A stretch of DNA of 42,792 bases from a virus (Duplodnaviria > Caudoviricetes), in the IMG/VR virus record IMGVR_UViG_3300030372_001680, positions 1 to 42,792 of that record, one strand, 5' to 3'. Position 1 is the stretch's first letter. Each line of letters starts with the position of its first letter. The notes beneath the pieces were generated by a model, which did no database searches, was not told where the DNA came from, and saw only the letters and a program-made list of their open reading frames with translations. A program made the position numbers and the translations under genes. Of the stretch, positions 2,856 to 42,792 are shown one piece after another.

Positions 2856-4061
2856 TTATTCGTTTTCTGCCATAGTTTCTGTCGGAGTATCTGTACTTAG
2901 CTCCAACTTGTTTAGTTCGTAGTGACGTTGCACTACCCATTGTTTTAGCTCTGGTTCAGCTTTGGATGACATGAAGTCACTCATGCTTCCCAGAGGTGTG
3001 TAATGATCCTTGATGAACAGTAGGAGTTCTGCCCACTTGATTATCTTGTGTGGGTTGAGTGATCCCGAGTGCAGTCGGCATTCTATTGCCTTGCGGCTAC
3101 TTACATGAGAAGTGAATGCGTAGTACTTCTCTGTTGATGAGTAACCTAGCGCACAGTACCTGTTGTTACGTCTGCTTGCTGGTACGATTTCTTTTAACCA
3201 CGGTAATGCACAAGCGAACCTTTTACCTCTGGTATGCATAGCCTCTGTACTGAGGTCACGCATATCTAAGTGAACGTGAAGCCCACATTCTTTGGAGAGT
3301 TCACATTTATTTTTTCTTAGGTGGTCTGTTAACTTGAATAACCTGCCCCACCTACCTTGTTGTAACATGATGCGAACCTCTTGTCCTCGGTGGAACTGAT
3401 GTTCTGCTTTAGGTGATACGGATACGTCATACCCCCAGCTAACACCATAGAGTTCTTTGGTTGTGTCTGGGAATTGGAAGTCGATGTCGCCTCGTTCGTA
3501 CACAATGCGTCCATCGTCATCTTCTCTTGATTTAGCTCTAGCAATGTACTCTAGTTCTATACCTATAGCAGTTCCGTGAGGTAGAACACTTTCCATTACT
3601 CTGTTTGGACTCATTGTGTTCCAAGACTCTTTGAATTGAGCTACTTTATCAGAATATGATAGTACGTTTTCATTATACTCCCGTCTGTACCATGTACGTT
3701 CGTCTTTGATTGTTCTCGCAATCTTACGGGCGAACTTGGCTATACGAGGTGTGACTCCATTTGATTCTAGTAGAGCTTTATCTCCATCGGTTAGGCAATC
3801 TCTCCAATTATAGTCGTAACCAGATCTGAGCTGACCCCCTGTTCTGTAAGGAGATGATAAGGAATCAATACCGTGGTTATCTTGTATTCGTTGGATTAAC
3901 CCGTAGTTTTTTAGGGCTGTGATGACCATGCCTTTGTTGGATAGGACTCTCGTACCATCGTTAAGGACATCGTATTCTAGAGGGATTCTTGAGTTGAACT
4001 CTCCTCTTTCGATTTGTTTGTGCAGAGCTAGGTTTATCTGTTGTTTTTTCTTTATGTTCAT
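2856..4061 (-). CDS. Putative amidoligase (COOH-NH2 ligase, glutamine synthetase/glutamate-cysteine ligase fold)
   Basis: Motifs GIELE, DVSV, CGLHVH, NRYC, IECRLHSGSL; adjacent to a class II GATase, as is typical of this family. Confidence 0.85.
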   Translation of the reverse strand: MNIKKKQQINLALHKQIERGEFNSRIPLEYDVLNDGTRVLSNKGMVITALKNYGLIQRIQDNHGIDSLSSPYRTGGQLRSGYDYNWRDCLTDGDKALLESNGVTPRIAKFARKIARTIKDERTWYRREYNENVLSYSDKVAQFKESWNTMSPNRVMESVLPHGTAIGIELEYIARAKSREDDDGRIVYERGDIDFQFPDTTKELYGVSWGYDVSVSPKAEHQFHRGQEVRIMLQQGRWGRLFKLTDHLRKNKCELSKECGLHVHLDMRDLSTEAMHTRGKRFACALPWLKEIVPASRRNNRYCALGYSSTEKYYAFTSHVSSRKAIECRLHSGSLNPHKIIKWAELLLFIKDHYTPLGSMSDFMSSKAEPELKQWVVQRHYELNKLELSTDTPTETMAENE

Positions 4062-4065
4062 AGTG

Positions 4066-4299
4066 CTAGTTATTTTTGATGATAGTTTCTACTGTTGGCT
4101 TGCCCTTTAGTGCATCATCGGCCACTTCAAGGGTAAGAGTTACTGCGGTGACGTAGGCTAGGAACCTACTCCGAGATATTTCTTTGATCTCTCCTTCATC
4201 AAGTCCTTTGAGTAGCTTTACAGATGTTTTGTGTGCCATCTGTACGGCTTCTCTTGCTTGGATTAGTTGAGCGTCTGTTAGGTTATCTATTATAGACAT
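4066..4299 (-). CDS. Hypothetical early protein
   Basis: 77-aa ORF tightly packed in the early operon. Confidence 0.7.
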   Translation of the reverse strand: MSIIDNLTDAQLIQAREAVQMAHKTSVKLLKGLDEGEIKEISRSRFLAYVTAVTLTLEVADDALKGKPTVETIIKNN

Positions 4300-5269: not shown

Positions 5270-5980
5270 GGGCTGGCGACTCAGCCTGTGGCTTGCGGCA
5301 GAGGTTTCTCAGTCTCACTGAGACCTCAGACATATAAGCCAAGCAAGCTGCGGTTATCCTCGGTGCTTACTCCGTGGATCACCCAGTTACTTGGCTTATA
5401 TGACGGTGACGCAAACACTGAGCGTGTCGCCAGTGCATTTTACCCTTTACCACCTATTCACCATAGAACCCGCGTACTGGCGCCAGTTGTTTCTGATGCT
5501 GGAAATTCAAGATCAAGGGAAAAGCCTTGGCTTTTAGGCATAGGAAACTCGCGGAGCAACCACGGCAAAGCTGTGGTTGTCGCGGAGTTTGCTTGCCGAC
5601 CGGATCTTTAGGCATTGCTTGTGCTACCGTGTGTTTCCCCAAGAAAATAAGATAAAAAATAAACCGTGCTTTCTCTGTTTATTTTTTAAAACCAACGCGA
5701 CTAAAAGACGTTGGCTACAAAGAAGATGATAGTATGTTAACTTTTAGTCTCGTTGGTTGGTCTTTTTTCTTTGGAAACAGTAGGTAAGCAGAAGCTATGC
5801 CTGAATTTCCTGCATCAGGTCGTGTTATTTTTAGACAAATCCAAAGAGAGTTTGAGATTAGCCGACATATGGTCTCGAGGCGGGCTAGGCGATGTCGAGT
5901 AATCTCTCAACTCTCTTGGATTTGGCGTGAAGAAAATAACACGGCCCAAGTCGCTGGTTGGAGCTTGCGGCAGCACACTG

Positions 5981-6163
5981 TAATCCAATGAGCAGAATCA
6001 TTGGTGGTAATCCAACGAGCCAAAGCGTTGGTGGTTGATCAATCTAGCCAAAGAGATTGTCGTAATCCAATGAGCGAAAGCATTGGTCGTGATCAATCGG
6101 CGAAACGATTGTGGTAATCCAACGAGCCAAAGCGTTGGTCGTGGTACAGCGGCGAAACGCTGT
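5981..6163 (+). repeat. Tandem array of 7 hairpin units (~27-nt period)
   Basis: Stems start at 5985, 6012, 6040, 6067, 6094, 6119, 6146; loop core GCNRAA; linker T(G/C)GT(A/G)AT. Confidence 0.9.
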
Positions 6164-6380
6164 CTGCCCTTTTGATGGCAAGGTGAATGGCGCGTGTAAA
6201 TTAAAATGATAGTAGTTTAAGTTGCTGGTTTTCTGGCGCTAGTGGTGTACTGTTGCAATGGGAGTCATACGGTCGTACTCGCCGCGAGGAGCGGATACTG
6301 GATTTACCTAGTGGATTTCTTTGGATGTTCTCGAAGAGGTTATCCGAATAAATACACGGTGACATCGTAAGGGCAGTCGG

Positions 6381-6483
6381 AATCCAACGATCGAAAGCGT
6401 TGGTCTTGCGGAAGCATCGTGATCCAACGGCAAGACGTTGGGCCTCGCTGGCAAGCGTAGTGGTCAAGCGGCGATACGCTTGA
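6381..6483 (+). repeat. Second cluster of 3 related hairpin units
   Basis: CCAACG-ATCGAAAG-CGTTGG (6384), CCAACG-GCAAGA-CGTTGG (6424), TCAAGCG-GCGATA-CGCTTGA (6464). Confidence 0.8.
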
Positions 6484-30980: not shown

Positions 30981-31018
30981 AATTTATACTGCATATAACC
31001 AGACGGATCAAATTACAA

Positions 31019-31053
31019 CAAAAAAAGAGAGGAGTCCACTAGGGACTCCCCTC
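31019..31053 (-). terminator. Terminator after major capsid gene (T-phi equivalent)
   Basis: GAGGGGAGTCC-CTAGT-GGACTCCTCTC followed by a T run. Confidence 0.9.
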
Positions 31054-31074
31054 ATTGATTTTTATGAACAATTT

Positions 31075-32127
31075 TTAGTCGTTCATCAGTACCACGCCGC
31101 ACTCAGGACGCAGACCGCCGTGGCCCATAGCGTACTTAGCGACCATCAACGTACCTTGGCGTTGGATCTGGTACTCACTCTCGGTGGCGAGGTCTTGCAA
31201 CTTCACCGTACCGACTGCGGATTTATGGAACACAAGGCCCATAATATTAGCACCGAACTCAGCATGGTAATCTTGAGCTGGCCCAGTTTCTTCAGTGATA
31301 TTGCCAGAAGGCAGGTGGTTAGTTTTAATAACCGTAATACCTGCGACCTTCAGCACGGAACCTTCGGCATACGAACCACGACCATCCCAATCACGATTGA
31401 TTGCGAGGGCAGCACCACCACTGGTCTCGGCTTGCACCAAGTTGTAGTAGCGTTGTGGGTTCACCAGCACACAACGATCCGACTGAGGAACATCCTTCTC
31501 ATCGAGAAGTTGAGCCGCAGCATAGATCGCTTTAGCGAGGCGAGTACCGTTGGTGTCCATGTCAGCGGAACCGTTACCAAGATAACGAACATCATCGGTA
31601 TCAGTACCAGCAGTAGCACTAACCACGCTGCCGTTTTTGTTACCAGTAATGGTAGCAGAAGCAGCAGTAGCAGCACCGCCGCTGAAGCTAGCAGCGTTAA
31701 GCAGAGCCGTCTGGATTACCTGACGGTCAAACTTGTTAGCCAGCGCACGGCCCAATTCACCGGAGTAAATCGAACGAACATCGTAGTGGTTACGCAGCTC
31801 ATCGAGGTTAGCGATAAACGTCGAAGCCACAAGCAGTTCGTCGATGTGAATAAGTTTCTCAGCGTGTTTGATCTGCTGAATGCCGCCGGGATTGGAAGCA
31901 TTAATAAGATCATTCCCAACAACGTGGTAGCCAGCGGTTGCTGTACCAGTGACGGGGAACTGAGCGGATTTACCATTGTTAATGGTACGAATAGTGTGGA
32001 GGGGTTTCATCACATTCGTTTCTTCGAATGTCGTGAGAACCTCCCCAGCGAATTTCTTCAGGAAGATAGCCTTTACATCACCAGAGGTGTTGATTTGGCC
32101 CAACCTTGACGGAGTAGCATCTGCCAT
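31075..32127 (-). CDS. Major capsid protein (gp10-like)
   Basis: IFLKKFAGEVLTTF, RTINNGKSAQFP, YDVRSIYS, KYAMGHGGLRPE. Confidence 0.97.
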   Translation of the reverse strand: MADATPSRLGQINTSGDVKAIFLKKFAGEVLTTFEETNVMKPLHTIRTINNGKSAQFPVTGTATAGYHVVGNDLINASNPGGIQQIKHAEKLIHIDELLVASTFIANLDELRNHYDVRSIYSGELGRALANKFDRQVIQTALLNAASFSGGAATAASATITGNKNGSVVSATAGTDTDDVRYLGNGSADMDTNGTRLAKAIYAAAQLLDEKDVPQSDRCVLVNPQRYYNLVQAETSGGAALAINRDWDGRGSYAEGSVLKVAGITVIKTNHLPSGNITEETGPAQDYHAEFGANIMGLVFHKSAVGTVKLQDLATESEYQIQRQGTLMVAKYAMGHGGLRPECGVVLMND

Positions 32128-32292
32128 CGTTAGAACTTTCTTCTAAGGGTTATTAATATAATTAGGTTTCACACAACCTCGTCGTATTCGATTGCAATTA
32201 GTTGTCCCGCCGTAGCTAGGGCTAACTCCTATCGCCATACCACACAGTTGGCTTAATCAAAATAAAGTCCATGTTATGTAAATCGTCAACAT

Positions 32293-32327
32293 AAAAAAGA
32301 AGGGCTCAGTATAGACTGAACCCTCCT
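32293..32327 (-). terminator. Intrinsic terminator between scaffold and capsid genes
   Basis: GGAGGGTTCAGT-CTAT-ACTGAGCCCTTC then TTTTTT; the wobbles fit the minus strand. Confidence 0.8.
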
Positions 32328-32383
32328 TAGTACTATGAACGACTAACTATTATGACTATCTGTCAGGCTACACTGACAAGCCA
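32293..32383 (-). ncRNA. Candidate 3'UTR-derived antisense sRNA (hairpin + seed + terminator)
   Basis: 5' hairpin TGTCAG-TGTAGC-CTGACA, then CATAATAGTTAGTCGTT (complement of the SSB start region), then the terminator. Confidence 0.5.
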
Positions 32384-33136
32384 TTAGATAACACCTTCAC
32401 GAGTATTGGCAAGCTTCCTTTCAACTCGCTCTCTAAAAGCAGGGTCTTCCTTGTACTCAGGTTTTCTCATGTCAGCAATCATTTCTGCTTTAGAAGAGTA
32501 ACCTCCTACAGTTGCTTTGCCAGTGCCGCTTACTAACGTAGGATTGTTCTGACTGTACTTAGCTTGCAGTCCCATTAAAGCCAGCTTAATAGATTGAGTG
32601 CTGCCTTCTTTAATGACGTTGTTGTAGGCATTCATGTCCTCGTCATTAAGATGTTCTCCAGCCCATTCCATTATGGATCTATAATTTTCTTCTCCTCCTA
32701 CGGAAGAAAAAACATCTAAAGCTTGGGCATCGGCTTTAGCTGCCTGACCTTCAATAAATAGATCAACGAGTTCTTTAGAGAAGTTAAACTTTTCGCTTAA
32801 CTCGTTGTAACTTTCTTCAGTTAAGCTGCCATTTTCAGCGTACTCTCCTGAGTATTTTTCAAATGCATCTGAACCGATGATGTTCTTAACATTCTCTCCT
32901 TGGTCATCGGCATTTGTTTCGGCTGATGTTTCCTCTGATTCGGAAGGTGTTTCCTCGGCAGAGCCGCTTCCCATTTTCTTCTGCAACTCATTGTAAGCTT
33001 GTTGCAAAGCTTCTGGTGACTCGAACTTTTCGTCAAGCCATTCGGGTCGAGAAGAATCAGGTTGTTGTTGGGGTTCTGGAGCGTCGGCTCCTGCGGTGTC
33101 GCCAGCAAAGGCGAATGTAGTTTGTTCTGATGCCAT
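32384..33136 (-). CDS. Capsid assembly scaffold (gp9-like)
   Basis: Acidic; RPEWLDEKF, VGGEENY, C-terminal YSSKAEMIADMRKPEYKEDPAFR. Confidence 0.9.
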   Translation of the reverse strand: MASEQTTFAFAGDTAGADAPEPQQQPDSSRPEWLDEKFESPEALQQAYNELQKKMGSGSAEETPSESEETSAETNADDQGENVKNIIGSDAFEKYSGEYAENGSLTEESYNELSEKFNFSKELVDLFIEGQAAKADAQALDVFSSVGGEENYRSIMEWAGEHLNDEDMNAYNNVIKEGSTQSIKLALMGLQAKYSQNNPTLVSGTGKATVGGYSSKAEMIADMRKPEYKEDPAFRERVERKLANTREGVI

Positions 33137-33142
33137 ATAGTT

Positions 33143-34714
33143 TTACTGTGGTGGTTGAGGCATAGCTTCAGGATTTTTCATTGCTTCTTTAGCAATGCCT
33201 CCAGCAGCAGTAATTCCCGAAGGAAGTCCTTGCTGAATCATAGCCTGTTGCTGTGCCATTTGTTGTTCTTCTTGGATTTGTTCTTCGGTTCTAATCAAAC
33301 CTTCAGTATCAATTCCAATAGAAGTAGCTCGTCGTTGTAAGTACTCAGACATATCTACATACGTTGGGAACTCCTGACCTAGTAGTTCAGAAGCACCAGC
33401 AATAAACATATCCAGTTTGTTTAAATCATGTCCTCTTCCTAAAGCTTCGAGTCCTGTTACAATAGCAGGTTTAACAATCTTCTTAGGAAGCTTTGGAAGT
33501 CGCCGTTGTTTAGTCATTTTGTCCATGACACGGTTGACTAAAGGCAACTGAAACTCTTGAGAAAGAATAGAATAAACACCGCCAAGAACATCTTCTAGTT
33601 CTTGAGCCATGAATCTAATCTCTTCCGCTGTGACTCGTTCAGCGTTCCGTTGAATCGAGGTGTTCATTAGGAATGCAAAGCCGAGCCTTTCTTTAATCAT
33701 CCCGATGACATCGTAGGCTACTTTAAAGTCAGCAAACTTTTGCACTTGAAGGGCTTGAACATCTTCAGCATTACCCTGAACGATAGCACCGTTACTTGAT
33801 TTAGCTATAGTGTTGATGCGGGTTGACCCATTAGGGTTAACTAAGAACAACACTTTAGCAGCAGCAGCAGAACCCTCTACGATAGCACGGGTTAAACTTT
33901 CTAAGCTCCGAAGGTCGCCTAAGTATTCTTCAATGAATCCTCGGCCATAGTGTTCGCCATCAATACGACTAAATCTCAGAGGTATAAATGGGTTTTTGTT
34001 TTTAGAATATACTCCCTTAGAGGAGGGAATTTCTACGCTGTTGATCTCTTGGCAAACGTGCCATTTGTTTTCATTAAGGTAGACACAAGTATAGAGATCT
34101 AAAGCTTCGGTTTGATTCTTAGTGTAACCTTCAGAATCTTCGTTACCTACAACCAGTTCTTTGGTAGCGGGATCAAGTACATCAGGGGTTACGCTCTCTT
34201 TGGTAGCAAGTGCTACTAAGTTTCCAGATGGATCACGTTTACAAACAAAAGAATCTAAAGAAAAGACACGGGCTTCTCCTTTGTCTGGCACATAAAGCAA
34301 AGCGTTGCCGCTTACAATCAGATGCTTTAAGGCTTCGAACACAGTTACCCGTAGGTTTCCTGTCTCAAACTCAGCCTGAACAGCACGTTCTACTTGACCA
34401 AGAGACTGCTCAATGTCTGCCTGTATCTCCTCGATAGGTACACCTTGATTCTTGATCGAGAAGTAATCGACTTTGAATCTAAAGAACGGAGCATTGGGAG
34501 GCAGCAAAGCAAGCAACAGTTTGCTTGAAAGATTGTTTACACCCCTAGCACCCATCCCCTGAAAGGGGGTAGGGTAAGTAGTAGAAGAAGTATTACCTTC
34601 AGGCGGAACTAGGTAAGGCAAGGTAAGTTCAGCAGCTTCCCTTGCTCTATCTAAAAACAATCTTCGATCGTCGCTACACTGATCGTAGAAACCTCTGATG
34701 TTATCTATGTACAT
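33143..34714 (-). CDS. Portal / head-tail connector (gp8-like)
   Basis: GARGVNNLSSKL, YGRGFIEEYLGDL, ERVTAEEIR, TGLEALGRG. Confidence 0.97.
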   Translation of the reverse strand: MYIDNIRGFYDQCSDDRRLFLDRAREAAELTLPYLVPPEGNTSSTTYPTPFQGMGARGVNNLSSKLLLALLPPNAPFFRFKVDYFSIKNQGVPIEEIQADIEQSLGQVERAVQAEFETGNLRVTVFEALKHLIVSGNALLYVPDKGEARVFSLDSFVCKRDPSGNLVALATKESVTPDVLDPATKELVVGNEDSEGYTKNQTEALDLYTCVYLNENKWHVCQEINSVEIPSSKGVYSKNKNPFIPLRFSRIDGEHYGRGFIEEYLGDLRSLESLTRAIVEGSAAAAKVLFLVNPNGSTRINTIAKSSNGAIVQGNAEDVQALQVQKFADFKVAYDVIGMIKERLGFAFLMNTSIQRNAERVTAEEIRFMAQELEDVLGGVYSILSQEFQLPLVNRVMDKMTKQRRLPKLPKKIVKPAIVTGLEALGRGHDLNKLDMFIAGASELLGQEFPTYVDMSEYLQRRATSIGIDTEGLIRTEEQIQEEQQMAQQQAMIQQGLPSGITAAGGIAKEAMKNPEAMPQPPQ

Positions 34715-34716
34715 CG

Positions 34717-34935
34717 TTAATAATTAACTCCAGTTCCAGAAGATTGAGTAGACACTCCTGATGTACGGCGGATTACCATGCCTTGACGGGCGGAACCTCG
34801 TCGCCGCTTTCGGCCTTCCCGATCTTTAGGACGAGCCTTTGTCTCAAGGCGAGACACAGTTACCGGAGTAGGCGCAGGGGGTGGGGGCGGGGGTGCTGTT
34901 GTATTATTAGATCCTCCTCCTCCTCCGATACACAT
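34717..34935 (-). CDS. Small virion assembly protein (gp7.3-like position)
   Basis: MCIGGG start, Pro-rich then basic, immediately upstream of the portal. Confidence 0.65.
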   Translation of the reverse strand: MCIGGGGGSNNTTAPPPPPPAPTPVTVSRLETKARPKDREGRKRRRGSARQGMVIRRTSGVSTQSSGTGVNY

Positions 34936-34937
34936 AG

Positions 34938-35138
34938 CTATTCCTTTACGTTAAAAATGTTGTTGTTTTGTTCTTCACGAACGTCTTTTAACAGTCTTAC
35001 TACCGAAACTTGTCCTTGTAAACGACAAATATCACTCAAAGTCTCCTTATCAAGGGGCATTTTGTCAGGAAACCGTAGTTCTAGTGCGCTTATTAGCTCC
35101 TCACTTACCAAAGGAAAGTCCTGAAACTCATGCGTCAT
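34938..35138 (-). CDS. Conserved hypothetical protein of T7-like phages
   Basis: LISALELRFP...GQVSVVRLL motif; syntenic position. Confidence 0.7.
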   Translation of the reverse strand: MTHEFQDFPLVSEELISALELRFPDKMPLDKETLSDICRLQGQVSVVRLLKDVREEQNNNIFNVKE

Positions 35139-35667
35139 CTTTAATTTCTCCTATAATTAAAGGCCATTGTATTTCCAGAGACTTTTCCCCATCGTTAGTT
35201 AGCAGGTAGTCTGGAAGGATGTCATCGAGTTCTGTTTCAGACTCATGCATATGGTGTTTGCCTATTCTGAATGTTTTAGGCGGCTTCACTTTAACAATTT
35301 TACCCTTTAGATTCCTGACATACTCTGCCTCATTGTGGAATCTTACATCAGTAAACACTATTACATCAGCCTGTTCTGACAGGAACTTAACTTGAAGTTC
35401 AATTTTTTTAATCCAGTAATCAGGATCTACACTTCTACGATATTCTGTTCCCCACCTTTGAAGCTCCTCTCTAAAAGAACTCTTCTTAGATTCAAGTTCT
35501 TCAACGTCGATGTTAGATGCTTCGGCGTATTCTTTTTTAACTTCATCTCCGAAGGCAACTCGCACTACTACTTCAGGTTTAAGCAAGTCTTTGAGTACTT
35601 CAAATGCTGTGTCTTTACCTGACCCTGCTTTACCTACCAAACCTACTACTTTTGTGGTGGATTCCAT
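35128..35667 (-). CDS. Deoxynucleoside monophosphate kinase-like P-loop kinase
   Basis: GKAGSGKDT, RxxLQRWGTE, DVRFHNEA, HESET. Confidence 0.85.
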   Translation of the reverse strand: MESTTKVVGLVGKAGSGKDTAFEVLKDLLKPEVVVRVAFGDEVKKEYAEASNIDVEELESKKSSFREELQRWGTEYRRSVDPDYWIKKIELQVKFLSEQADVIVFTDVRFHNEAEYVRNLKGKIVKVKPPKTFRIGKHHMHESETELDDILPDYLLTNDGEKSLEIQWPLIIGEIKDDA

Positions 35668-36416
35668 AGCTTTACCTCCTTGGTTTGAAAGTCATAGTCA
35701 TCGCTTCTAAGTATGTATGCCATACGAGCTTGAGTAAGGATGGCTTTAGACGATGTGACCCCTGACTTGTTAAAGGTTTCTTTGACTGCATCCCAAGTGT
35801 GACCAAAGGACTGCCTGTTGACTAGCTTGCCTAGAATTTTTTCAGCAGTCTTAGGCCCAATTTTAGGACACCCGCCATAGTTATCTGTACTGTCTCCGGT
35901 AAGAGTTTGGATCATATGATTATAGAAAGCAGCACCTTCGTTTATAGTAATGATACCTTCGTCAGCTTTGTCAGGATTAAACAATCTACAAGGAACAGTT
36001 TTAAAATCCTTATCAACACTAACTACGATCCTGTCGTAAGCATCTTTAACTGTCGCTTCAATGCCGATGTAATCGTCAGCTTCTAACCTGTCCTCACACA
36101 AAGCACCCCATTCTTTTTTCATATGATCCCTCAAGGCAGGGAGAATCATAGGCTTACGGACAGATTTCCTGTTAGCTTTATACTCAGGGTAAAGTTCTTT
36201 CCTGAAATTCTTAGGAGAAGAAAGATACACAGATACTTTCGAGGCGATAAGCTCGTCTTGAAGCATCTCAATAAAATTATCTACCTGAATTTTTCCTTCT
36301 TTAGCATCAGCGTGTAGAGTCCACTGGTCGTCTCCCCAATGAACAGGTTCTTCGCAAGACGCTGCAACTTTGTAAGCAATGATGTCTCCATCAATTAATA
36401 GGTGTCGTTTAGTCAT
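35646..36416 (-). CDS. 5'-3' exonuclease (gp6-like)
   Basis: LLIDGD, YKANR, LEADD, DKD, GDSTDNYGGCPKIG. Confidence 0.93.
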   Translation of the reverse strand: MTKRHLLIDGDIIAYKVAASCEEPVHWGDDQWTLHADAKEGKIQVDNFIEMLQDELIASKVSVYLSSPKNFRKELYPEYKANRKSVRKPMILPALRDHMKKEWGALCEDRLEADDYIGIEATVKDAYDRIVVSVDKDFKTVPCRLFNPDKADEGIITINEGAAFYNHMIQTLTGDSTDNYGGCPKIGPKTAEKILGKLVNRQSFGHTWDAVKETFNKSGVTSSKAILTQARMAYILRSDDYDFQTKEVKLWNPPQK

Positions 36417-36718
36417 AGTATTTTTTGTTTACCTACGAACAATTCGTAGCGTGTTTTCAGTACAGGGTTGTTAAAGGTATAGTCGTCCCATTTTTTAAGG
36501 GCATAAACTATAGTGTCGTAATTTTTATTAAACACTTTGGCTATTAGATTTACACTGTACCCTTTGTTGTGGAGGTACTGATACAACATAGCTCTAGCGT
36601 CTACTGCATCCTGCAATCTTGTAGGAGACTTCAGTAATCTCGTGCTGATACCGAAGATGTACGCAGCATCCGCAATCATCTTGTGTAAGTGAGGTATCTT
36701 TATATCTTTTTTATCCAT
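36413..36718 (-). CDS. Stand-alone DnaA C-terminal (domain IV)-like helix-turn-helix protein
   Basis: LKSPTR...VDARAMLYQYL...SVNLIAKVFNKNYDTIVYALKK parallels DnaA domain IV; likely start MDKKDIK. Confidence 0.7.
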   Translation of the reverse strand: MDKKDIKIPHLHKMIADAAYIFGISTRLLKSPTRLQDAVDARAMLYQYLHNKGYSVNLIAKVFNKNYDTIVYALKKWDDYTFNNPVLKTRYELFVGKQKIL

Positions 36719-36719
36719 G

Positions 36720-38522
36720 TTAGTGTGTGTCAGCCCAGTTAGTTCCTGCTTTAGCTTCTCCATCAAGAGGACACTTGAACTTAAAGTAATCTCCTGCCTC
36801 TCGAATAGATTCCACAGCTAGAGCCATGACTTTATCTTTATTCTCAGGCCAAACTTCTAGTTGAAACTCATCGTGAACGTGAGCAACAAAGGAGAAGTCC
36901 TTGCCCTGAATCAGACCTTCTGTCTGAAGTTTTTCCCACAGATTAACTGTGGCTTTCTTCATTACCAATGCCCCAGCAGATTGAAGCAGAGTGTTAAGTG
37001 CGGCGTGGTTACTCCGTATCTGAAGTTTCCTACCGTCCAGACCCATAAGGTAATCCCGACCCTCTAAAGCTTTGAAAATTTTTTCCTTCAAAACTCTCAG
37101 GCTAGGTAGAGATTCAAGAAACCTTTTCTTAATGGATGCCCCCTCCTTTGAGGAACCTCCTATGATCTCTCCAATCTTGGCGTCACCAGCACCATAAAGA
37201 AACCCATAGATAAATGTCTTTGCATTGTCCCTAGTAGGAAGTCCCGCTGCCTTCTGATTAACAGTATGAATATCATCCTCAAGCAGCTTGTGAGTGTATT
37301 CAGGATCGTTCATGTAATGGGCCAAGCATCGAAGCTCAAGGCCACTGGCGTCACACCCAATGAGTACCTTTCCCTCGGAGGCTGTGAACAGGGATCGGTA
37401 CTCAGGCTCACGGGGTACTTGAGCCATGTTGGGGTATCTGTGGGTGCAACGTCCAGTGACCGCTCCATTAGTCACAACGTGACCATGAAGTCTCCCCTGT
37501 CTCTCCAGCTTCATCCAGCCGTTAGCACCGTCAGCTAACTGGCCCATGCGCTTCTGAAGAGTCAGGTAACGAGCGAGCTTCTTTGCTTCTGGGTAGGGTA
37601 GCCCAACCAAAACTGTTTCATCTACCTTAGGCTTACCTCCCTCTGTAAACTGATTAGGTTCCCATCCTTGGGCCATAAGCCTTTCAGATATGTGATCCCT
37701 ACTGGCAGCGTTAAAAGGAATGCGCTTAACCTTATGATCTCCCTTAACTATTTCCTTAGGCTTATACCCAGCAGCTATAGCAGCAGACTTAGTAGAGAAC
37801 TGCTGACCACCAGCAATCCACCAAGTCATCTTCATTTGGATAACCTTGGGAGGAAAGAGACTCTGGAACTCACTCTCCAGTTCTATCTTTTCGGTAGCCA
37901 GTTTAGCGTACAACTGCTCGGCAGACTTAACATCAAATGCAAACCCGTTGAGTTCTTGCTCAGTCATTATCCAAGCAAAGTCATGCTCCAGTTTAATAGC
38001 TTCTTCGGAGTACTTCTTAGACTCAAGATGATTGAGCAACTCCAGAGTAACCTTCACATCCTGCTCACAGTAATCCTCCAGTTCTTTAGTCCACTTAGTC
38101 AGGTCACTTGACTCCAAGTAAGTACCCTTGAGCATATTCAAACGATAGCCCCAAGCTTTAAGGCTGTGACTCCCAGTTATATTGGTAGGGTAGTCATCCT
38201 CCTTGCGGGATCTGTTGATGTCGTAATCCCTAATGTCCGTGTGAATCAGGCGACTCATGGTAAGAGTGTCCCGAACCAGCGCAGAGGGAACCCAGTTATA
38301 GAGTTTTCTCAAAGCTGGAAGATCAAAATTAATAATATTATGACCCACTATAACATCAGCTTCGTCCATCATCTTGAGACCGTCCTCAATAGGTGGGCCT
38401 TGCATTGTGCTGTTGAACCTAAACACCTCTCTGGTATCAGCGTCCTGCAACACTAGGCAATGACACCTGTGCAACTTGGGAAGCAAGTCGTTGGTTTCTA
38501 TGTCAAAGACAAGCCTCTTCAT
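36720..38522 (-). CDS. Family A DNA polymerase (gp5-like)
   Basis: Exonuclease motifs FDIET and GHNIINFD; polymerase motifs DASGLELR, AKTFIYGFLYG (Tyr at the T7 Y526-equivalent site) and VHDE. Confidence 0.97.
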   Translation of the reverse strand: MKRLVFDIETNDLLPKLHRCHCLVLQDADTREVFRFNSTMQGPPIEDGLKMMDEADVIVGHNIINFDLPALRKLYNWVPSALVRDTLTMSRLIHTDIRDYDINRSRKEDDYPTNITGSHSLKAWGYRLNMLKGTYLESSDLTKWTKELEDYCEQDVKVTLELLNHLESKKYSEEAIKLEHDFAWIMTEQELNGFAFDVKSAEQLYAKLATEKIELESEFQSLFPPKVIQMKMTWWIAGGQQFSTKSAAIAAGYKPKEIVKGDHKVKRIPFNAASRDHISERLMAQGWEPNQFTEGGKPKVDETVLVGLPYPEAKKLARYLTLQKRMGQLADGANGWMKLERQGRLHGHVVTNGAVTGRCTHRYPNMAQVPREPEYRSLFTASEGKVLIGCDASGLELRCLAHYMNDPEYTHKLLEDDIHTVNQKAAGLPTRDNAKTFIYGFLYGAGDAKIGEIIGGSSKEGASIKKRFLESLPSLRVLKEKIFKALEGRDYLMGLDGRKLQIRSNHAALNTLLQSAGALVMKKATVNLWEKLQTEGLIQGKDFSFVAHVHDEFQLEVWPENKDKVMALAVESIREAGDYFKFKCPLDGEAKAGTNWADTH

Positions 38523-40123
38523 AGCTCCTCACCTTCCAGTTCTAGGTGTTCATTCATGCGTCCAGTTTCAGTATCGTACTCCAGCCTAGTGGCTATGCCC
38601 GTTTGACCTGACCAACGATTCTTAAGAATACGCACCGTAGATATGTGGCATGACTCGTTGTCCTGCTGATCTCTCTCCAGACCTACGACCATATCACTAA
38701 GCTGCGCTATGGCAGCAGACCCTCGGAGTTGTGAGAGGCTGGTAACTGCTCCATCCTCGTGACCCCTACCTTCAGGGCGACGAAGGTGACTCACGAGAAT
38801 CAGTGCAAAGCCTAGCTCCTCCACCATAGACCGGAGGCGAGTCATGGTGTTGTCGATAAGACGCCGCTCGTCTCCGCCTTCCATACCACTGACCACAATA
38901 GACAAGTGATCCAAGAAAATTGTGGTACAACCGCAGCCTGTAACCATGTACCTCACACGGTTAAGCAGGTTATCGCTATCGAGTGAACCAAAGTGGTCGT
39001 ACATATAGCACCGTCCACTACCCACGGTAGCTTCGAAAGCGATCCTCTTTTCTTCATCCGACACAGTGGTAGGATCAAGATGAAGAGGACGGTTGCAATG
39101 GAGACCCATCAAGCCCAGCGAAGTACGCCTGACGTTTTCCTCAAGAGCGATGTATCCTATCGTTTCGCCAGAACTGAGGAGGGAATAAGCAACCTCTTTA
39201 CACAACTGGCTTTTACCGATTCCAGAACCCGCACAAAAAGTAGCGATCTCTCCCTTGCGGATTCCGTGCGTCAAATCATTCATTGACTGCCACGGATAAG
39301 GGAGGGATTCGCATACGATTTCTTTAGAGACGGTCTCCCACAAATCAACGCCGTCTACAATACCATCAGGTCTGTAGGGTCGGGCGTTGAAAATTGATTG
39401 CACTACTTCTGCTGCCCTCCCAGCTACCAACATTTCGTTAGCATCCTTGAGGGGGAGAGTAGCTATTTTAGCTTTGCCCACAGGCAGGAGAGAAGCGCAG
39501 TCTGTCGCAGCTTTCTTACCAGCCTCGTCATTATCGAACATCAGAATTACTTCTTCAAAGTTCTCTAGATAATCGAGACTAGAAGTAAGCACCTTCCGTG
39601 CTGCCGAAGCACCATTAGGAAGAGAAACCACAGGCCATTTGTGGTCGTTTATCTGAGAGACCGACAGTGCGTCGAGTTCTCCTTCAGTAATGACAAGCTT
39701 CTTGCCACGACTCCAAAGATGAGACCCGTAAAGACCTGCTTTAGATATGTCACCCACAGAACGGAAGTCCTTCTGAGGCAGTCGTATCTTCTGAGCTATA
39801 GTCTTACCGGACTCATCCTTGAAGTTAGCAATGTGGCACACCTTTCCTTCAAAGGAGCCGACCTTGTATCCCCATCGTCGGCAAGTGTCCTCGGTTATGC
39901 TTCTTCTAGAAAGCTCCTGAAAATCTCCCTCTGCGAAAGCGGAACCGACAGGCTGTCTTTCATGTAGCTGGCTAGATCCTTGGTTGATATTGTCAGTTTC
40001 TCCATTCTCATACGCTTCGCAGACGAAGCAGTAGGAATGACCGTCGCTGTAGGTAGCCCGTCCGTCAGACGAGCCGCATTTCTCGCAGGGTTCATGTGAT
40101 ATAAATGTTGATTCGTTGTTCAT
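38519..40123 (-). CDS. Primase-helicase (gp4-like)
   Basis: Zinc finger CEKC...CFVC, TOPRIM EGELD and FDND, AGSGIGKS, LDHL, LRGS, KNRWSG. Confidence 0.97.
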   Translation of the reverse strand: MNNESTFISHEPCEKCGSSDGRATYSDGHSYCFVCEAYENGETDNINQGSSQLHERQPVGSAFAEGDFQELSRRSITEDTCRRWGYKVGSFEGKVCHIANFKDESGKTIAQKIRLPQKDFRSVGDISKAGLYGSHLWSRGKKLVITEGELDALSVSQINDHKWPVVSLPNGASAARKVLTSSLDYLENFEEVILMFDNDEAGKKAATDCASLLPVGKAKIATLPLKDANEMLVAGRAAEVVQSIFNARPYRPDGIVDGVDLWETVSKEIVCESLPYPWQSMNDLTHGIRKGEIATFCAGSGIGKSQLCKEVAYSLLSSGETIGYIALEENVRRTSLGLMGLHCNRPLHLDPTTVSDEEKRIAFEATVGSGRCYMYDHFGSLDSDNLLNRVRYMVTGCGCTTIFLDHLSIVVSGMEGGDERRLIDNTMTRLRSMVEELGFALILVSHLRRPEGRGHEDGAVTSLSQLRGSAAIAQLSDMVVGLERDQQDNESCHISTVRILKNRWSGQTGIATRLEYDTETGRMNEHLELEGEEL

Positions 40124-40128
40124 AGTGC

Positions 40129-40497
40129 TTATTCCTTTTCAAACCATTCCTTTGGTGGATTTTTATGGCCCCAAAGAAAGCCATTCTTGTCAGCCCAATC
40201 GCAATAGCGGGTATTACTGCGCTTGGATAATTTTAAGTATGCGTTTTGAAATACAAACCTGAGGTCTATCTCTGGATGCTGATCTCTGATCCAAATATGT
40301 TTCTTCCTATCTTTCCCGCTAAACAGACCCTTAGCTTCAATATAAAAATTAAACTCAGGTAGGTAGAAGTCGGGGAGGTAGTTAGATTTTTGCTCAGGCT
40401 TAACGTATTTAATATTGTGTGGTTCGTAGTCCACCTGCCGCCCTCCCCTTGCGAGGAGGACGGCGAGGTACGCTTCGTACTGCGAACGGTATGCCAT
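40129..40497 (-). CDS. Endonuclease I / Holliday junction resolvase (gp3-like)
   Basis: YRSQYE, YLPDF, IEAKG, DRKKH, DLRFVF. Confidence 0.93.
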   Translation of the reverse strand: MAYRSQYEAYLAVLLARGGRQVDYEPHNIKYVKPEQKSNYLPDFYLPEFNFYIEAKGLFSGKDRKKHIWIRDQHPEIDLRFVFQNAYLKLSKRSNTRYCDWADKNGFLWGHKNPPKEWFEKE

Positions 40498-40501
40498 CCT
40501 T

Positions 40502-41146
40502 TTACAGATCGTCCACAGTAGTCACGGACTCCTCATGGCTACTGAAAGTAGCTTCCTCCTTGGCTGCATCAGCAGCTTCTTCAGGAGCCTTGTAGCCATC
40601 CTCCTTGGCTGTAAAACCAAAGCCAGCCGCACTGTTGGATTGGTACTCAACCAACTCCACAACCTGAACGGCGTTGAGTCGCAGAGTAATGCCACAACCC
40701 ATAGTAGGCGTGTAGTACGTTTGCGGGGCAAACTGAATGACAAGCTTGCTGCCGCCACCGATCACTGGGCCTGTGAATCCCTTCAACTGAGAATCAACAA
40801 TCTTAGGACGTTGCGTCCAACTCTTGCCAGTGCGTGTAGTGACGTTGTGCTTCAACTTAAACTTGAAGTCAAACTCGCCAGTAGGGTTTCCGTCATCGTC
40901 GTGAACCTCAGTGTAAGGGAGGTTAGCTTTTTTGACAGAAGGTTTGCGAAGCCGCTTAACTTCTTCAGCATGGAAACCGTCAAGCTTTGCTTCTAGTTTT
41001 TCAACAAGCTTCGCACCATCTTCAGCAGAGAGACGAAGGTTAACCGAGAACACTCCGTTAGGATCAAACTTAGTGTCGGGCTCGTTGAGTCGAGGGTAAA
41101 CAGCTACACCCTCAGGTGTAGTCCAGTATTCAATGTTGTTAGCCAT
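40502..41146 (-). CDS. ssDNA-binding protein (gp2.5-like)
   Basis: Start MANNIEY; TPEGVAVYP, IGGGS, GITLRLNAVQV; acidic tail. Confidence 0.92.
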   Translation of the reverse strand: MANNIEYWTTPEGVAVYPRLNEPDTKFDPNGVFSVNLRLSAEDGAKLVEKLEAKLDGFHAEEVKRLRKPSVKKANLPYTEVHDDDGNPTGEFDFKFKLKHNVTTRTGKSWTQRPKIVDSQLKGFTGPVIGGGSKLVIQFAPQTYYTPTMGCGITLRLNAVQVVELVEYQSNSAAGFGFTAKEDGYKAPEEAADAAKEEATFSSHEESVTTVDDL

Positions 41147-41182
41147 AATAGTTAGTCGTTGCGTTGCAACTCCGTGCTGCAA

Positions 41183-42792
41183 CTACGAATACATATACTT
41201 TGAGTGCCAAACTTCGTCAACTGAAAACTTTCCAATAATTTTGGAGAGATCTTTTTGAAAGTCATAATAACACTGTTTTTCCAGTGTTTTTCGAGTAAAA
41301 ATTTTTTCGAAAAAAATGTTAGAATCATTTCTAAAAATTTTTAGGTACGCTTGTTTCACATTTTTTATTAACTCAGGAAGGTTTGGAGCATGAGTACCAA
41401 AGCAATCGTGAATCGAGTACACATCAGTCAACGCCGTTGATGATAGTGCCATATGCATAATTGAAGCATCGAGGCTGTGAACAAAATTTGGAGCAAAACT
41501 TCTAGCTATTTTTGTTCTGTCTAGCTTGTCTGTAGGCTCCCTGTAAGTGAGGCTATGTGACTTACCAAGAATGTAAGATGAGCATTTGTGTATTTTTTCC
41601 TTGCGGTAGTCGAGGGTAATAGGGAATCCTGACGGCGACAGCCAACTCACTTCACCTTCGTGACCTTCTGCGAGTCCCTTAAGATACCTTAGTACCTTAG
41701 GATACTTAGGGTATAACCTAGAGAATATATTTATTATAGTCTTAGCTATAGTATCTGCTTTATCTAAGGTATCCTTAGTGTACTTAACTCCTAACCAAGC
41801 TTTAGTTATTTCTATTGCTCTGAAGGTAGTACAACCATAAGGGATGGTCATCACAATGGACTTCACCAAGTCTCTTGTTATCGGGATGTTTAACTCAGCT
41901 TCGACTTCGGTTTGTATTCTTGAATAGATGTCGTGCTTAGAATCGTTGGTCAGGTTTGTCCATAAAGCACCTTCTTCGTCCTTAAGGATTAAGCTTAAAA
42001 TCTGTAGCCCGTTAGAAGAAGCATCAGCAGAAACCGGAAGAGAGGTTTCCCCTGTCTCCACAGCATTAGCATAATCAAAAACCCACGCTAAGAATTGCCA
42101 AGGGTTTTTAGCGTCTGCCCACCACAAAAACCCAGTAGGGTTATACAAAGTTTCCTTCACCTTTTCCTGCCAATCAGAGTCGAAACCTCCGTACAAGTTT
42201 GCGCCATGTTCGATTAGGTTAGACATGGATTGTCCTACCTCTACTTTCCTCTCAAACTTTAGCAAAGCTCTGGCTAGATCTGGGCCTTGTGGGTTCAGGA
42301 AATTGGGTATGCAGTATGCCCTTCCTCTGAAATCCATTTGATGCGGGAAGTACATGGTCTTTTCCATGTATTCCCTAGCTACCCAGAGCATCTTAGAAAC
42401 CCTAAGCCTAGAAGACCGTAGTGCGTGGTCTTCTCGGTAGTACTTAGCGGCTTCATACTTCCATTTCTTTTTAGCTTCTTCGTTGGAATCAAAGTCAGCA
42501 GGTTTGGGCGGTATGTTATCTAAAGCAAACGGAGGAAAGTCAGCTACTTGGTATTGGTTAGCCCAAAAGTAATGAGCTACGTCATACACCTCTTGGTTTA
42601 CGACCCAAGGAGTGCTTTTTAATTTACCTACAGCTTGGCGAGGTATTGTTAGGTTTACTCGGTCGAGAAGTTCCCACTGTTTTTCTGATTTAGTACTAAT
42701 AACAGCATCGCTATATCCACGAGGCGATTCTGAGGGCAGGTAAAGCGGGGCTAAGGTTTCGTTAACTTCGTTAAAGTTCGAGATCCATTTCT
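41183..42792 (-). CDS. T7-like RNA polymerase, catalytic C-terminal part
   Basis: DFRGRAY; motif A DASSNGLQ; motif B RDLVKSIVMTIPYG; PNFVHSLDAS; motif C IHDCFGTH. Frame is open to the window end. Confidence 0.96.
   Translation of the reverse strand, partial: KWISNFNEVNETLAPLYLPSESPRGYSDAVISTKSEKQWELLDRVNLTIPRQAVGKLKSTPWVVNQEVYDVAHYFWANQYQVADFPPFALDNIPPKPADFDSNEEAKKKWKYEAAKYYREDHALRSSRLRVSKMLWVAREYMEKTMYFPHQMDFRGRAYCIPNFLNPQGPDLARALLKFERKVEVGQSMSNLIEHGANLYGGFDSDWQEKVKETLYNPTGFLWWADAKNPWQFLAWVFDYANAVETGETSLPVSADASSNGLQILSLILKDEEGALWTNLTNDSKHDIYSRIQTEVEAELNIPITRDLVKSIVMTIPYGCTTFRAIEITKAWLGVKYTKDTLDKADTIAKTIINIFSRLYPKYPKVLRYLKGLAEGHEGEVSWLSPSGFPITLDYRKEKIHKCSSYILGKSHSLTYREPTDKLDRTKIARSFAPNFVHSLDASIMHMALSSTALTDVYSIHDCFGTHAPNLPELIKNVKQAYLKIFRNDSNIFFEKIFTRKTLEKQCYYDFQKDLSKIIGKFSVDEVWHSKYMYS

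Follow-up and report, generated by a model that had tools for sequence, protein, structure and literature searches.

Regulatory RNAs carried at the end of an operon and acting on that same operon have been described in Vibrio cholerae, where CarZ and OppZ occupy the stretch from the last stop codon of their operon to its intrinsic terminator and pair with initiation regions within it, which for CarZ is that of the first gene (PMC7398697). The operons concerned are chromosomal metabolic operons of 2–5 genes, RNase E and Hfq are required, and for OppZ a trans route has been shown (PMC7398697). GcvB, a free-standing, conserved host sRNA, is a U/G-rich RNA that masks ACA-rich translation-enhancing elements (PMC3879156). 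For phages, a review covers the antisense RNAs OOP, sar, aQ, sas and PAK_P4as15 and the trans-acting RNAs PreS and VpdS (PMC12197685); it describes those with phage targets as antisense RNAs, most of them from temperate phages, and gives a host gene as the target of PreS. The same review tabulates 38 phage sRNAs without a function and PMC10914365 includes ncRNA tables, and both could bear on the novelty of the element considered here. In the literature searched, which lay mostly outside subscription papers, no operon-end autoregulatory RNA was found in a T7-like phage.

The element is the scaffold 3′UTR of a marine, T7-like phage, and the window is the whole 42,792 nt stretch that was analysed. 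Like CarZ and OppZ, this UTR lies between a last stop codon and an intrinsic terminator and is predicted to pair with an initiation region of its own gene run. Unlike them, it follows a run of 11 genes and 8.9 kb, the pairing is long and near-perfect, there are at least two predicted targets and the seed has been rewritten in each lineage. As with GcvB, a U/G-rich seed faces ACA/AAC-rich starts in the predicted duplexes, here starts without a Shine-Dalgarno motif, but the phage UTR has no sequence homology to GcvB (Rfam blank). It would share with OOP, sar, PreS and similar RNAs the tuning of a phage's own developmental genes by a phage-encoded, pairing RNA. However, it differs from the RNAs of the review in being encoded by a T7-like phage on the strand of its target, 8.8 kb away from it.

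The window represents a whole phage genome, circularly permuted and with repeated ends, and all the identified genes are on the minus strand. They encode an RNA polymerase (RNAP), SSB, an endonuclease, a primase/helicase, DNA polymerase, a small HTH protein, an exonuclease, a dNMP kinase, two small genes, portal, scaffold, capsid, tail and terminase proteins, an amidoligase and an amidotransferase. The RNAP gene (736 aa; 41183–42692 and 1–701) crosses the junction and its palm motifs are kept. Eleven abutting genes (gaps of −22 to +6 nt; 5 nt between endonuclease and primase) make up a run of about 8.9 kb, the first being the gp2.5-like SSB gene (40502–41146; PHROG 112, PF21265) and the last the capsid assembly scaffold gene (32384–33136; PHROG 1052, PF05396). 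Identity to the nearest isolates is about 51 % for capsid and 55 % for primase. No lysozyme or amidase was detected among 44 proteins compared with PHROGs and 16 compared with Pfam. In GTDB genomes, relatives of the capsid protein were found at 38–53 % identity only, so no host was assigned, and the capsid-leader pattern had no matches there. The small HTH protein (101 aa; 36413–36718, minus strand) gave a weak Bac_DnaA_C hit (E 1.5e-5, under the curated cut-off); an ORF of 91–106 aa occupies its position in relatives and it is a candidate phage regulator. Separately, a gene-poor region between the terminase and the early genes (5973–6423) contains four degenerate 52-nt repeats, which are possible origin or packaging signals.

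A predicted host-type promoter, TTGACG-17-TATATG (41192–41220, minus strand), lies in the 3′ end of the RNAP gene, with a predicted start at about 41185. TTGACG-17-TATMTG is present at this position in 7/7 lineages found by protein search, and all 15 matches in a scan with the SSB-promoter pattern were within the clade. A second predicted promoter, TTGACG-17-TTTATT (32261–32289, minus strand), parts the capsid gene from the run upstream, and TTGAC-18-TYWRTT precedes the capsid leader in 12/12 of the clade spacers listed. In a promoter matrix, the SSB and capsid sites scored 22.5 and 22.1, against 13.9 for the site ranked next, but the first two values are circular, since both sites were used for training. 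None of the top 22 matrix sites was inside the SSB-to-scaffold run, and no strong internal host-type promoter or terminator was found in it. An intrinsic terminator (32293–32328, minus strand), identified by a terminator scan and consisting of a 14-pair stem (32328–32297) and a U tract, is the sole long, U-tailed minus-strand terminator within 32250–42792. With the abutting run, the SSB promoter, this terminator and the separate capsid promoter, the simplest view of the UTR is as the terminal part of the transcript that starts at SSB. The first-pass annotation had placed it on a late transcript that silences replication genes. Replication genes are indeed the predicted targets, SSB first and primase second, but the UTR is most likely not a separate late transcript, and the logic would instead be that of feedback of the run on itself.

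RNA contigs cover parts of this region. The capsid contigs, which are unstranded and come from 4/4 runs in three studies, begin at 32254, 32239, 32238 and 32230, near the predicted capsid start at about 32254, and this is a weak hint in support of the capsid promoter. Short structured RNAs are often lost from RNA data. None of the contigs from the four runs covers 32255–32376, though such holes prove nothing, and the end of a scaffold contig of low depth is at 32377. Neither the UTR RNA itself nor a transcript that spans the SSB-to-scaffold run was seen. Over SSB, the end of the X1 contig (41144) falls two bases short of where a leaderless mRNA would begin and 41 nt inside the start predicted for host polymerase, and the X2 contig stops at 41062; X4 had no coverage and X6 none over SSB.

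The UTR itself (32293–32383, minus strand), located between the scaffold stop at 32384 and the capsid promoter, is a candidate regulatory RNA composed of a 5′ hairpin, an antisense stretch and the terminator. Its fold z-score is −4.19, and 0 of 200 shuffles folded as well. The predicted 6-bp 5′ hairpin (32361–32378, minus strand) is not common to the UTRs of relatives, which diverge widely in sequence and in most cases have a terminator-like hairpin. The seed had been described as unpaired between hairpin and terminator, and this depends on where the RNA begins. In an RNA starting at 32378 the seed is mostly open, but in one starting at 32383 it is partly occluded, with five seed bases (AGUCA) pairing with the 5′ end in a weak 5-bp helix. 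A search of the whole window with the covariance models of Rfam 15 gave no matches at E values up to 1.

The 17-nt sequence AACGACTAACTATTATG occurs on the plus strand at 32338–32354 and on the minus strand at 41160–41144, where its ATG is the SSB start codon, and these are the only copies in the window when up to three mismatches are allowed. Both this perfect match and its extension, in the UTR-to-mRNA direction, through one G-U pair had been recorded in the first-pass annotation, and all the coordinates were confirmed. The resulting 21-nt antisense stretch (32338–32358, minus strand; 20 Watson-Crick pairs and 1 G-U) is the top genome-wide alignment, with a score of 38 compared to a mean of 13.1 (SD 2.9). 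The main predicted target is thus the SSB initiation region from −14 to +7 (41140–41160, minus strand), which is A/C-rich and has no Shine-Dalgarno motif; directly upstream, fold prediction places a hairpin (41163–41183, minus strand) at the 5′ end of the SSB leader. The exact 20-mer was not found in viral contigs. As the UTR stretch and the target are on one strand and 8,781 nt apart, a cis-encoded antisense RNA of the OOP or sar kind is ruled out.

By itself the 17-mer is weak evidence, because an inverted pair of 17 nt was reached in 4/200 shuffles and the window contains a second perfect one (38606/41939), coding against coding. It is the position at the start codon, together with the relatives, that makes the SSB match more than chance. 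The G-U pair had also been said to work only in this RNA–RNA direction, and this argument was not upheld, as the energies in the reverse direction are equally strong. For SSB they are −19.7, −19.6, −20.7 and −15.7 in the four lineages compared, and for primase the reverse direction is stronger in three of the four. The ratios of G-U to A-C (3:2, 4:3, 2:0 and 2:2) show no asymmetry across the tested lineages, and the direction test is uninformative.

Overlapping the SSB stretch is a second one (32328–32340, minus strand) that is antisense to the primase, exonuclease and amidoligase starts, matches equalled by 1, 2 and 6 of 100 shuffles, respectively. The matches previously reported, 12/13 between TAGTACTATGAAC and the amidoligase start (4068–4056) and 10/11 between an 11-nt core and the primase start, were reproduced, and the mismatch in each is a C opposite A rather than a G-U. 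The primase/helicase start (40118–40128, minus strand; −12.4 kcal/mol, 1/100 shuffles) is the secondary target, and the pairing is much stronger in the relatives L030/L199 and L108/L018 than in the window. The exonuclease start (36397–36420, minus strand; −16.1, the best of 6 lineages; 2/100 shuffles), a match that was absent from the earlier list, is a possible target. For the amidoligase start (4056–4068, minus strand), the match stands but its role as a target is borderline, since 6/100 shuffles equal it, and it is at most a possible weak target. The capsid start was correctly reported to have no match (−6.9 kcal/mol, fourth of seven).

The both-strand alignment scan also revealed that the capsid stop region (31070–31092, minus strand) matches the UTR at 20/23 positions with one gap. 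This match is specific to the window (−17.1, compared to −6.5 in L024), and the region could be the source of the UTR sequence or a decoy site on the capsid mRNA. Pairing of the UTR with a motif in the capsid leader was considered and rejected, both for its weakness (energies of −0.8 to −11.2 across 9 loci) and because the leader itself folds the motif into a stem.

Relatives were collected by scans, and the clade so defined has capsid identities of 72–100 % and, outside the window's own strain group, SSB identities of about 57–62 %, in both cases among the matches listed. At least seven lineages include both regions, namely the window, L030/L199, L108 or L197 with L018, L189/L281, L028/L017, L025 with L190, and L019. 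L025 and L190 are single contigs holding both regions, and contigs were paired at 99.7 % identity over 6.7 kb for L030/L199 and 100 % over 123 nt for L028/L017. The pairings of L018 with L108 (95 % over 107 nt) and of L189 with L281 (abutting at exonuclease codon 87 with a 5-nt overlap and a common sample number) were inferred, not assembled. L024, L195 and L193 (without an SSB partner), L027 (long inserted spacer), L019 (in which there is no scaffold 3′UTR) and near-identical duplicates were outside the cognate tests. An extra ORF-like insert lies between the scaffold gene, or its terminator, and the capsid promoter in L027 (931–1112) and L195 (3975–4088).

If the UTR and the SSB start are partners, the two sites should co-vary, and they do so in four of the six testable lineages, but L025/L190 and L028 have no SSB match. 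For each of the four UTRs concerned (window, L030, L108 and L189), the cognate SSB start was the best of 12 SSB starts, with energies (next best in brackets) of −21.9 (−11.2), −20.3 (−13.4), −23.0 (−15.0) and −15.6 (−12.7), respectively. Seed shuffles outdid the cognate start in 0, 5, 0 and 4 cases per 150, in the same order, and the L189 pairing is weak. When partners were permuted over the four lineages, for which the floor is 1 in 24 and with seed limits set by eye, the true pairing ranked 1/24 for SSB, 1/24 for primase and 1/6 for exonuclease. Control genes ranked, out of 24, 3 (endonuclease), 4 (portal), 4 (capsid), 6 (scaffold), 16 (DNA polymerase), 19 (tubA), 20 (g66) and 21 (tubB).

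Compared with the other starts of the same phage using two-strand ensemble energies, SSB ranked 1/42 in the window, 1/19 in L030/L199, 2/14 in L108/L018 and 1/16 in L189/L281, and 12/15, 10/13 and 18/21 in L028, L025 and L190. In L199, primase outranks SSB once the primase start is set by homology. The alignment scan, in which both strands are scored symmetrically and G-U pairs receive no bonus, had the SSB or primase start codon as its top hit in the window (8,496 windows), L030 (4,310), L108 (2,724) and L197 (2,615) and as its second in L189, and found no start-codon match in L025 and L190. Raw duplex energies are too noisy for U/G-rich seeds; without an accessibility correction, the SSB window ranked 44/1,242, 13/1,364 and 512/1,828 in three relatives. 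The relatives' matches are gapped and their registers differ, extending over −23 to +8 for SSB and −7 to +26, inside the coding region, for primase. ATGGCTAA opens the SSB gene in the three paired lineages with GTTAGTYG in the UTR, and is missing from all other SSB starts listed for the clade. The L195 UTR contains blocks antisense to the SSB start of the window and its upstream motif (−21.6). Judged from these comparisons of sequences, the complementarity between UTR and SSB is real and is selected in part of the clade. In ten distant T7-like loci (portal 47–55 % identical; two others were dropped as they had no SSB start) the arrangement was not found, SSB ranking first in only one, where the stretch is coding-like, and the element therefore seems confined to the clade. 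A plus-strand mini-ORF was rejected, as the stretch has no ATG in L108, L024 or L195.

In the UTRs of L028 (1741–1822), L029 and L193, an anti-Shine-Dalgarno-like CCUCCU replaces the U/G seed. Pairing of the L028 CCUCCU loop with the DNA polymerase start (L017) had an energy of −11.6, the best of 7 lineages, but was set aside, as 26/100 shuffles match it.

That the inverted copies arose by template switching, or reflect shared A/C-rich composition, and have no function is quite unlikely. The window UTR does look pieced together from the SSB start and the capsid end, a chance 17-mer is present in the window, U/G-rich RNA readily pairs with A/C-rich starts, and the element is missing or different in 3/7 lineages. 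However, cognate partners surpass non-cognate ones for SSB and primase and not for the eight control genes, the cognate pairings beat dinucleotide shuffles, and independent copying events would each have needed the same two start codons.

The first-pass annotation also offered the alternative that both copies are promoters for the phage RNAP, giving a leaderless SSB mRNA and an antisense transcript into scaffold and portal. The likeness to the T7 promoter core, 11/12, agrees with the consensus quoted in PMC10134795. The window copies are identical at 20/21 positions, ungapped over −14 to +7, and one directly follows the RNAP gene. In these features they recall the T7, LUZ19 and LUZ100 promoters (PMC10914365, PMC10134795). 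In LUZ19 a phage promoter directly follows the RNAP gene and a further one is oriented antisense (PMC10914365), and LUZ100 has two phage promoters before SSB (PMC10134795). The capsid-end site agrees with the plus copy at 15/17 positions, the L018 primase upstream region agrees with the L108 UTR at 20/23 without gaps, and the largely ungapped matches in the window and in L108/L018 fit a promoter reading, as do the lack of G-U asymmetry and the X1 contig end at 41144. The X1 capsid contig stops 24 nt inside its predicted start, so contig ends are loose and do not show where a transcript starts. We nonetheless consider phage promoters unlikely. An ungapped 18-mer scan found the UTR copy only in the window (17/18) and L018/L108 (13/18) and in none of 7 other sets. 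No repeated promoter family precedes other operons, the window having two copies and one 13/18 site, and SSB already has a host-type promoter upstream. In relatives with very similar specificity loops, the −17 to −1 sequences are unrelated; the gapped L030 primase match, reaching +26, would start a transcript inside the coding region, and the best block in L189 is at −40 to −33. T7 RNAP positions 746, 748, 756 and 758 are promoter specificity contacts. The window RNAP has K, S, H and a gap there, 0/4 in common with T7, so the likeness to the T7 core is probably chance. The alternative thus retains its core likeness, but differs from the T7, LUZ19 and LUZ100 promoters in having no multi-copy ungapped family, no motif kept among relatives, whose matches are gapped and out of register, and no T7 specificity residues. 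The RNAP retains its palm motifs, but the promoters before SSB and capsid are of host type and the scans revealed no family of phage promoters.

Binding sites, on DNA or RNA, for a phage regulator such as the HTH protein (36413–36718) would offer another account of the matches, with RACRACTAA as the core. The sense strand contains six copies of this core (1.25 expected), among them those in the SSB leader, the capsid leader, the capsid end and the region upstream of GATase, and the UTR contains one inverted copy. The Bac_DnaA_C hit (E 1.5e-5, under the curated cut-off) would suit such a protein. However, RACRACTAA is missing from the L199, L018 and L281 SSB starts, exactly where the long match holds. 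The copy in the capsid leader is paired in a conserved stem, and the capsid-end copy encodes N-D-stop. Such sites would also leave the 20–30-nt lineage-specific matches over start codons unexplained, and this reading is very unlikely.

A late sRNA that is transcribed on its own, from a promoter located where the scaffold gene ends, appears highly improbable. TTGCCA, TTGGCA or TTGCTA is found in Leu-Ala codons of 6/6 seed-bearing lineages listed, and GTTAGTYG starts 7–8 nt past a TATYTA-like hexamer in L024, L030, L189 and L195. However, L027 has TTGGCA too, the TATYTA-like hexamer overlaps conserved V-I-stop codons, and in the promoter matrix the scaffold-end site ranks 1,027/2,922 in the window, with no site in L024, L030, L189 or L195.

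On balance, we think it probable that the UTR is a CarZ/OppZ-like autoregulatory 3′-end antisense RNA that blocks initiation at SSB and, more weakly, at primase. The observations that enter this reading are the complementarity and its lineage-specific upkeep, the terminator hairpin, the abutting run and the conserved promoter-like motifs before SSB and capsid. From them we infer that all 11 genes are co-transcribed and that the RNA is released and acts as a repressor, and also the polarity and timing of the effect, as follows. Host polymerase would start near 41185 and transcribe about 8.9 kb from SSB to scaffold, so that the U/G-rich tail would emerge only on the finished transcript, after a delay of minutes. 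The tail would accumulate as a terminator-protected 3′ fragment, a host nuclease being the candidate for its release, or, in a sub-variant, would pair from the intact mRNA end. It would cover the SSB and primase start codons along with their initiation regions, which are A/C-rich and free of Shine-Dalgarno motifs, and loss of initiation at the first gene may then lower the whole run by coupling, polarity or decay, as with CarZ. The capsid gene, with its own promoter and no match, would escape the feedback. Overall, feedback would bring about a middle-to-late switch in a phage in which no T7-type lysozyme was detected.

T7 relies on phage polymerase promoters and lysozyme for the class switch in which it leaves its replication genes behind. 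Lysozyme inhibits T7 polymerase (PMC10134795). In the present clade SSB and capsid appear to be expressed from host-type promoters and, as no lysozyme was detected, some other off-switch is needed. This would be provided by a feedback RNA at the operon end, with a delay set by transcript length. A broader proposal, which we advance tentatively and as somewhat short of an even chance, is that the clade has replaced protein-based middle-to-late control with an RNA timer, in which the 3′ end of the finished 9-kb operon silences its own first, key genes. The seed would have been rewritten repeatedly to track or swap targets, SSB and primase in four lineages and perhaps the DNA polymerase Shine-Dalgarno site in another. 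A feedback RNA at the operon end would in itself carry 3′UTR autoregulation beyond the metabolic operons of bacteria and into the programme of a lytic-type phage. The lineages also form a natural set of orthogonal RNA–target pairs, so that coevolution of sRNA and target is directly testable by cross-lineage swaps.

Further features were noted around the capsid gene. The capsid genes look swapped between lineages, as L107 is 93 % identical in capsid and 98–100 % elsewhere, and L024 and L030 are 92 % identical in capsid and 47–49 % in scaffold. The capsid leader (32128–32254, minus strand) is conserved and structured, with 83 % column identity in 8 clade members and 29 predicted pairs, two of which have double-sided changes; L019, L028 and L193 have a variant form. 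It had no Rfam match and is a possible translational operator. After the capsid terminator, most relatives include a TTGTTGTAATTT motif (30981–31026, minus strand) 16–18 nt before a TATA-like hexamer, which is possibly a weak host-type promoter for the tail genes.
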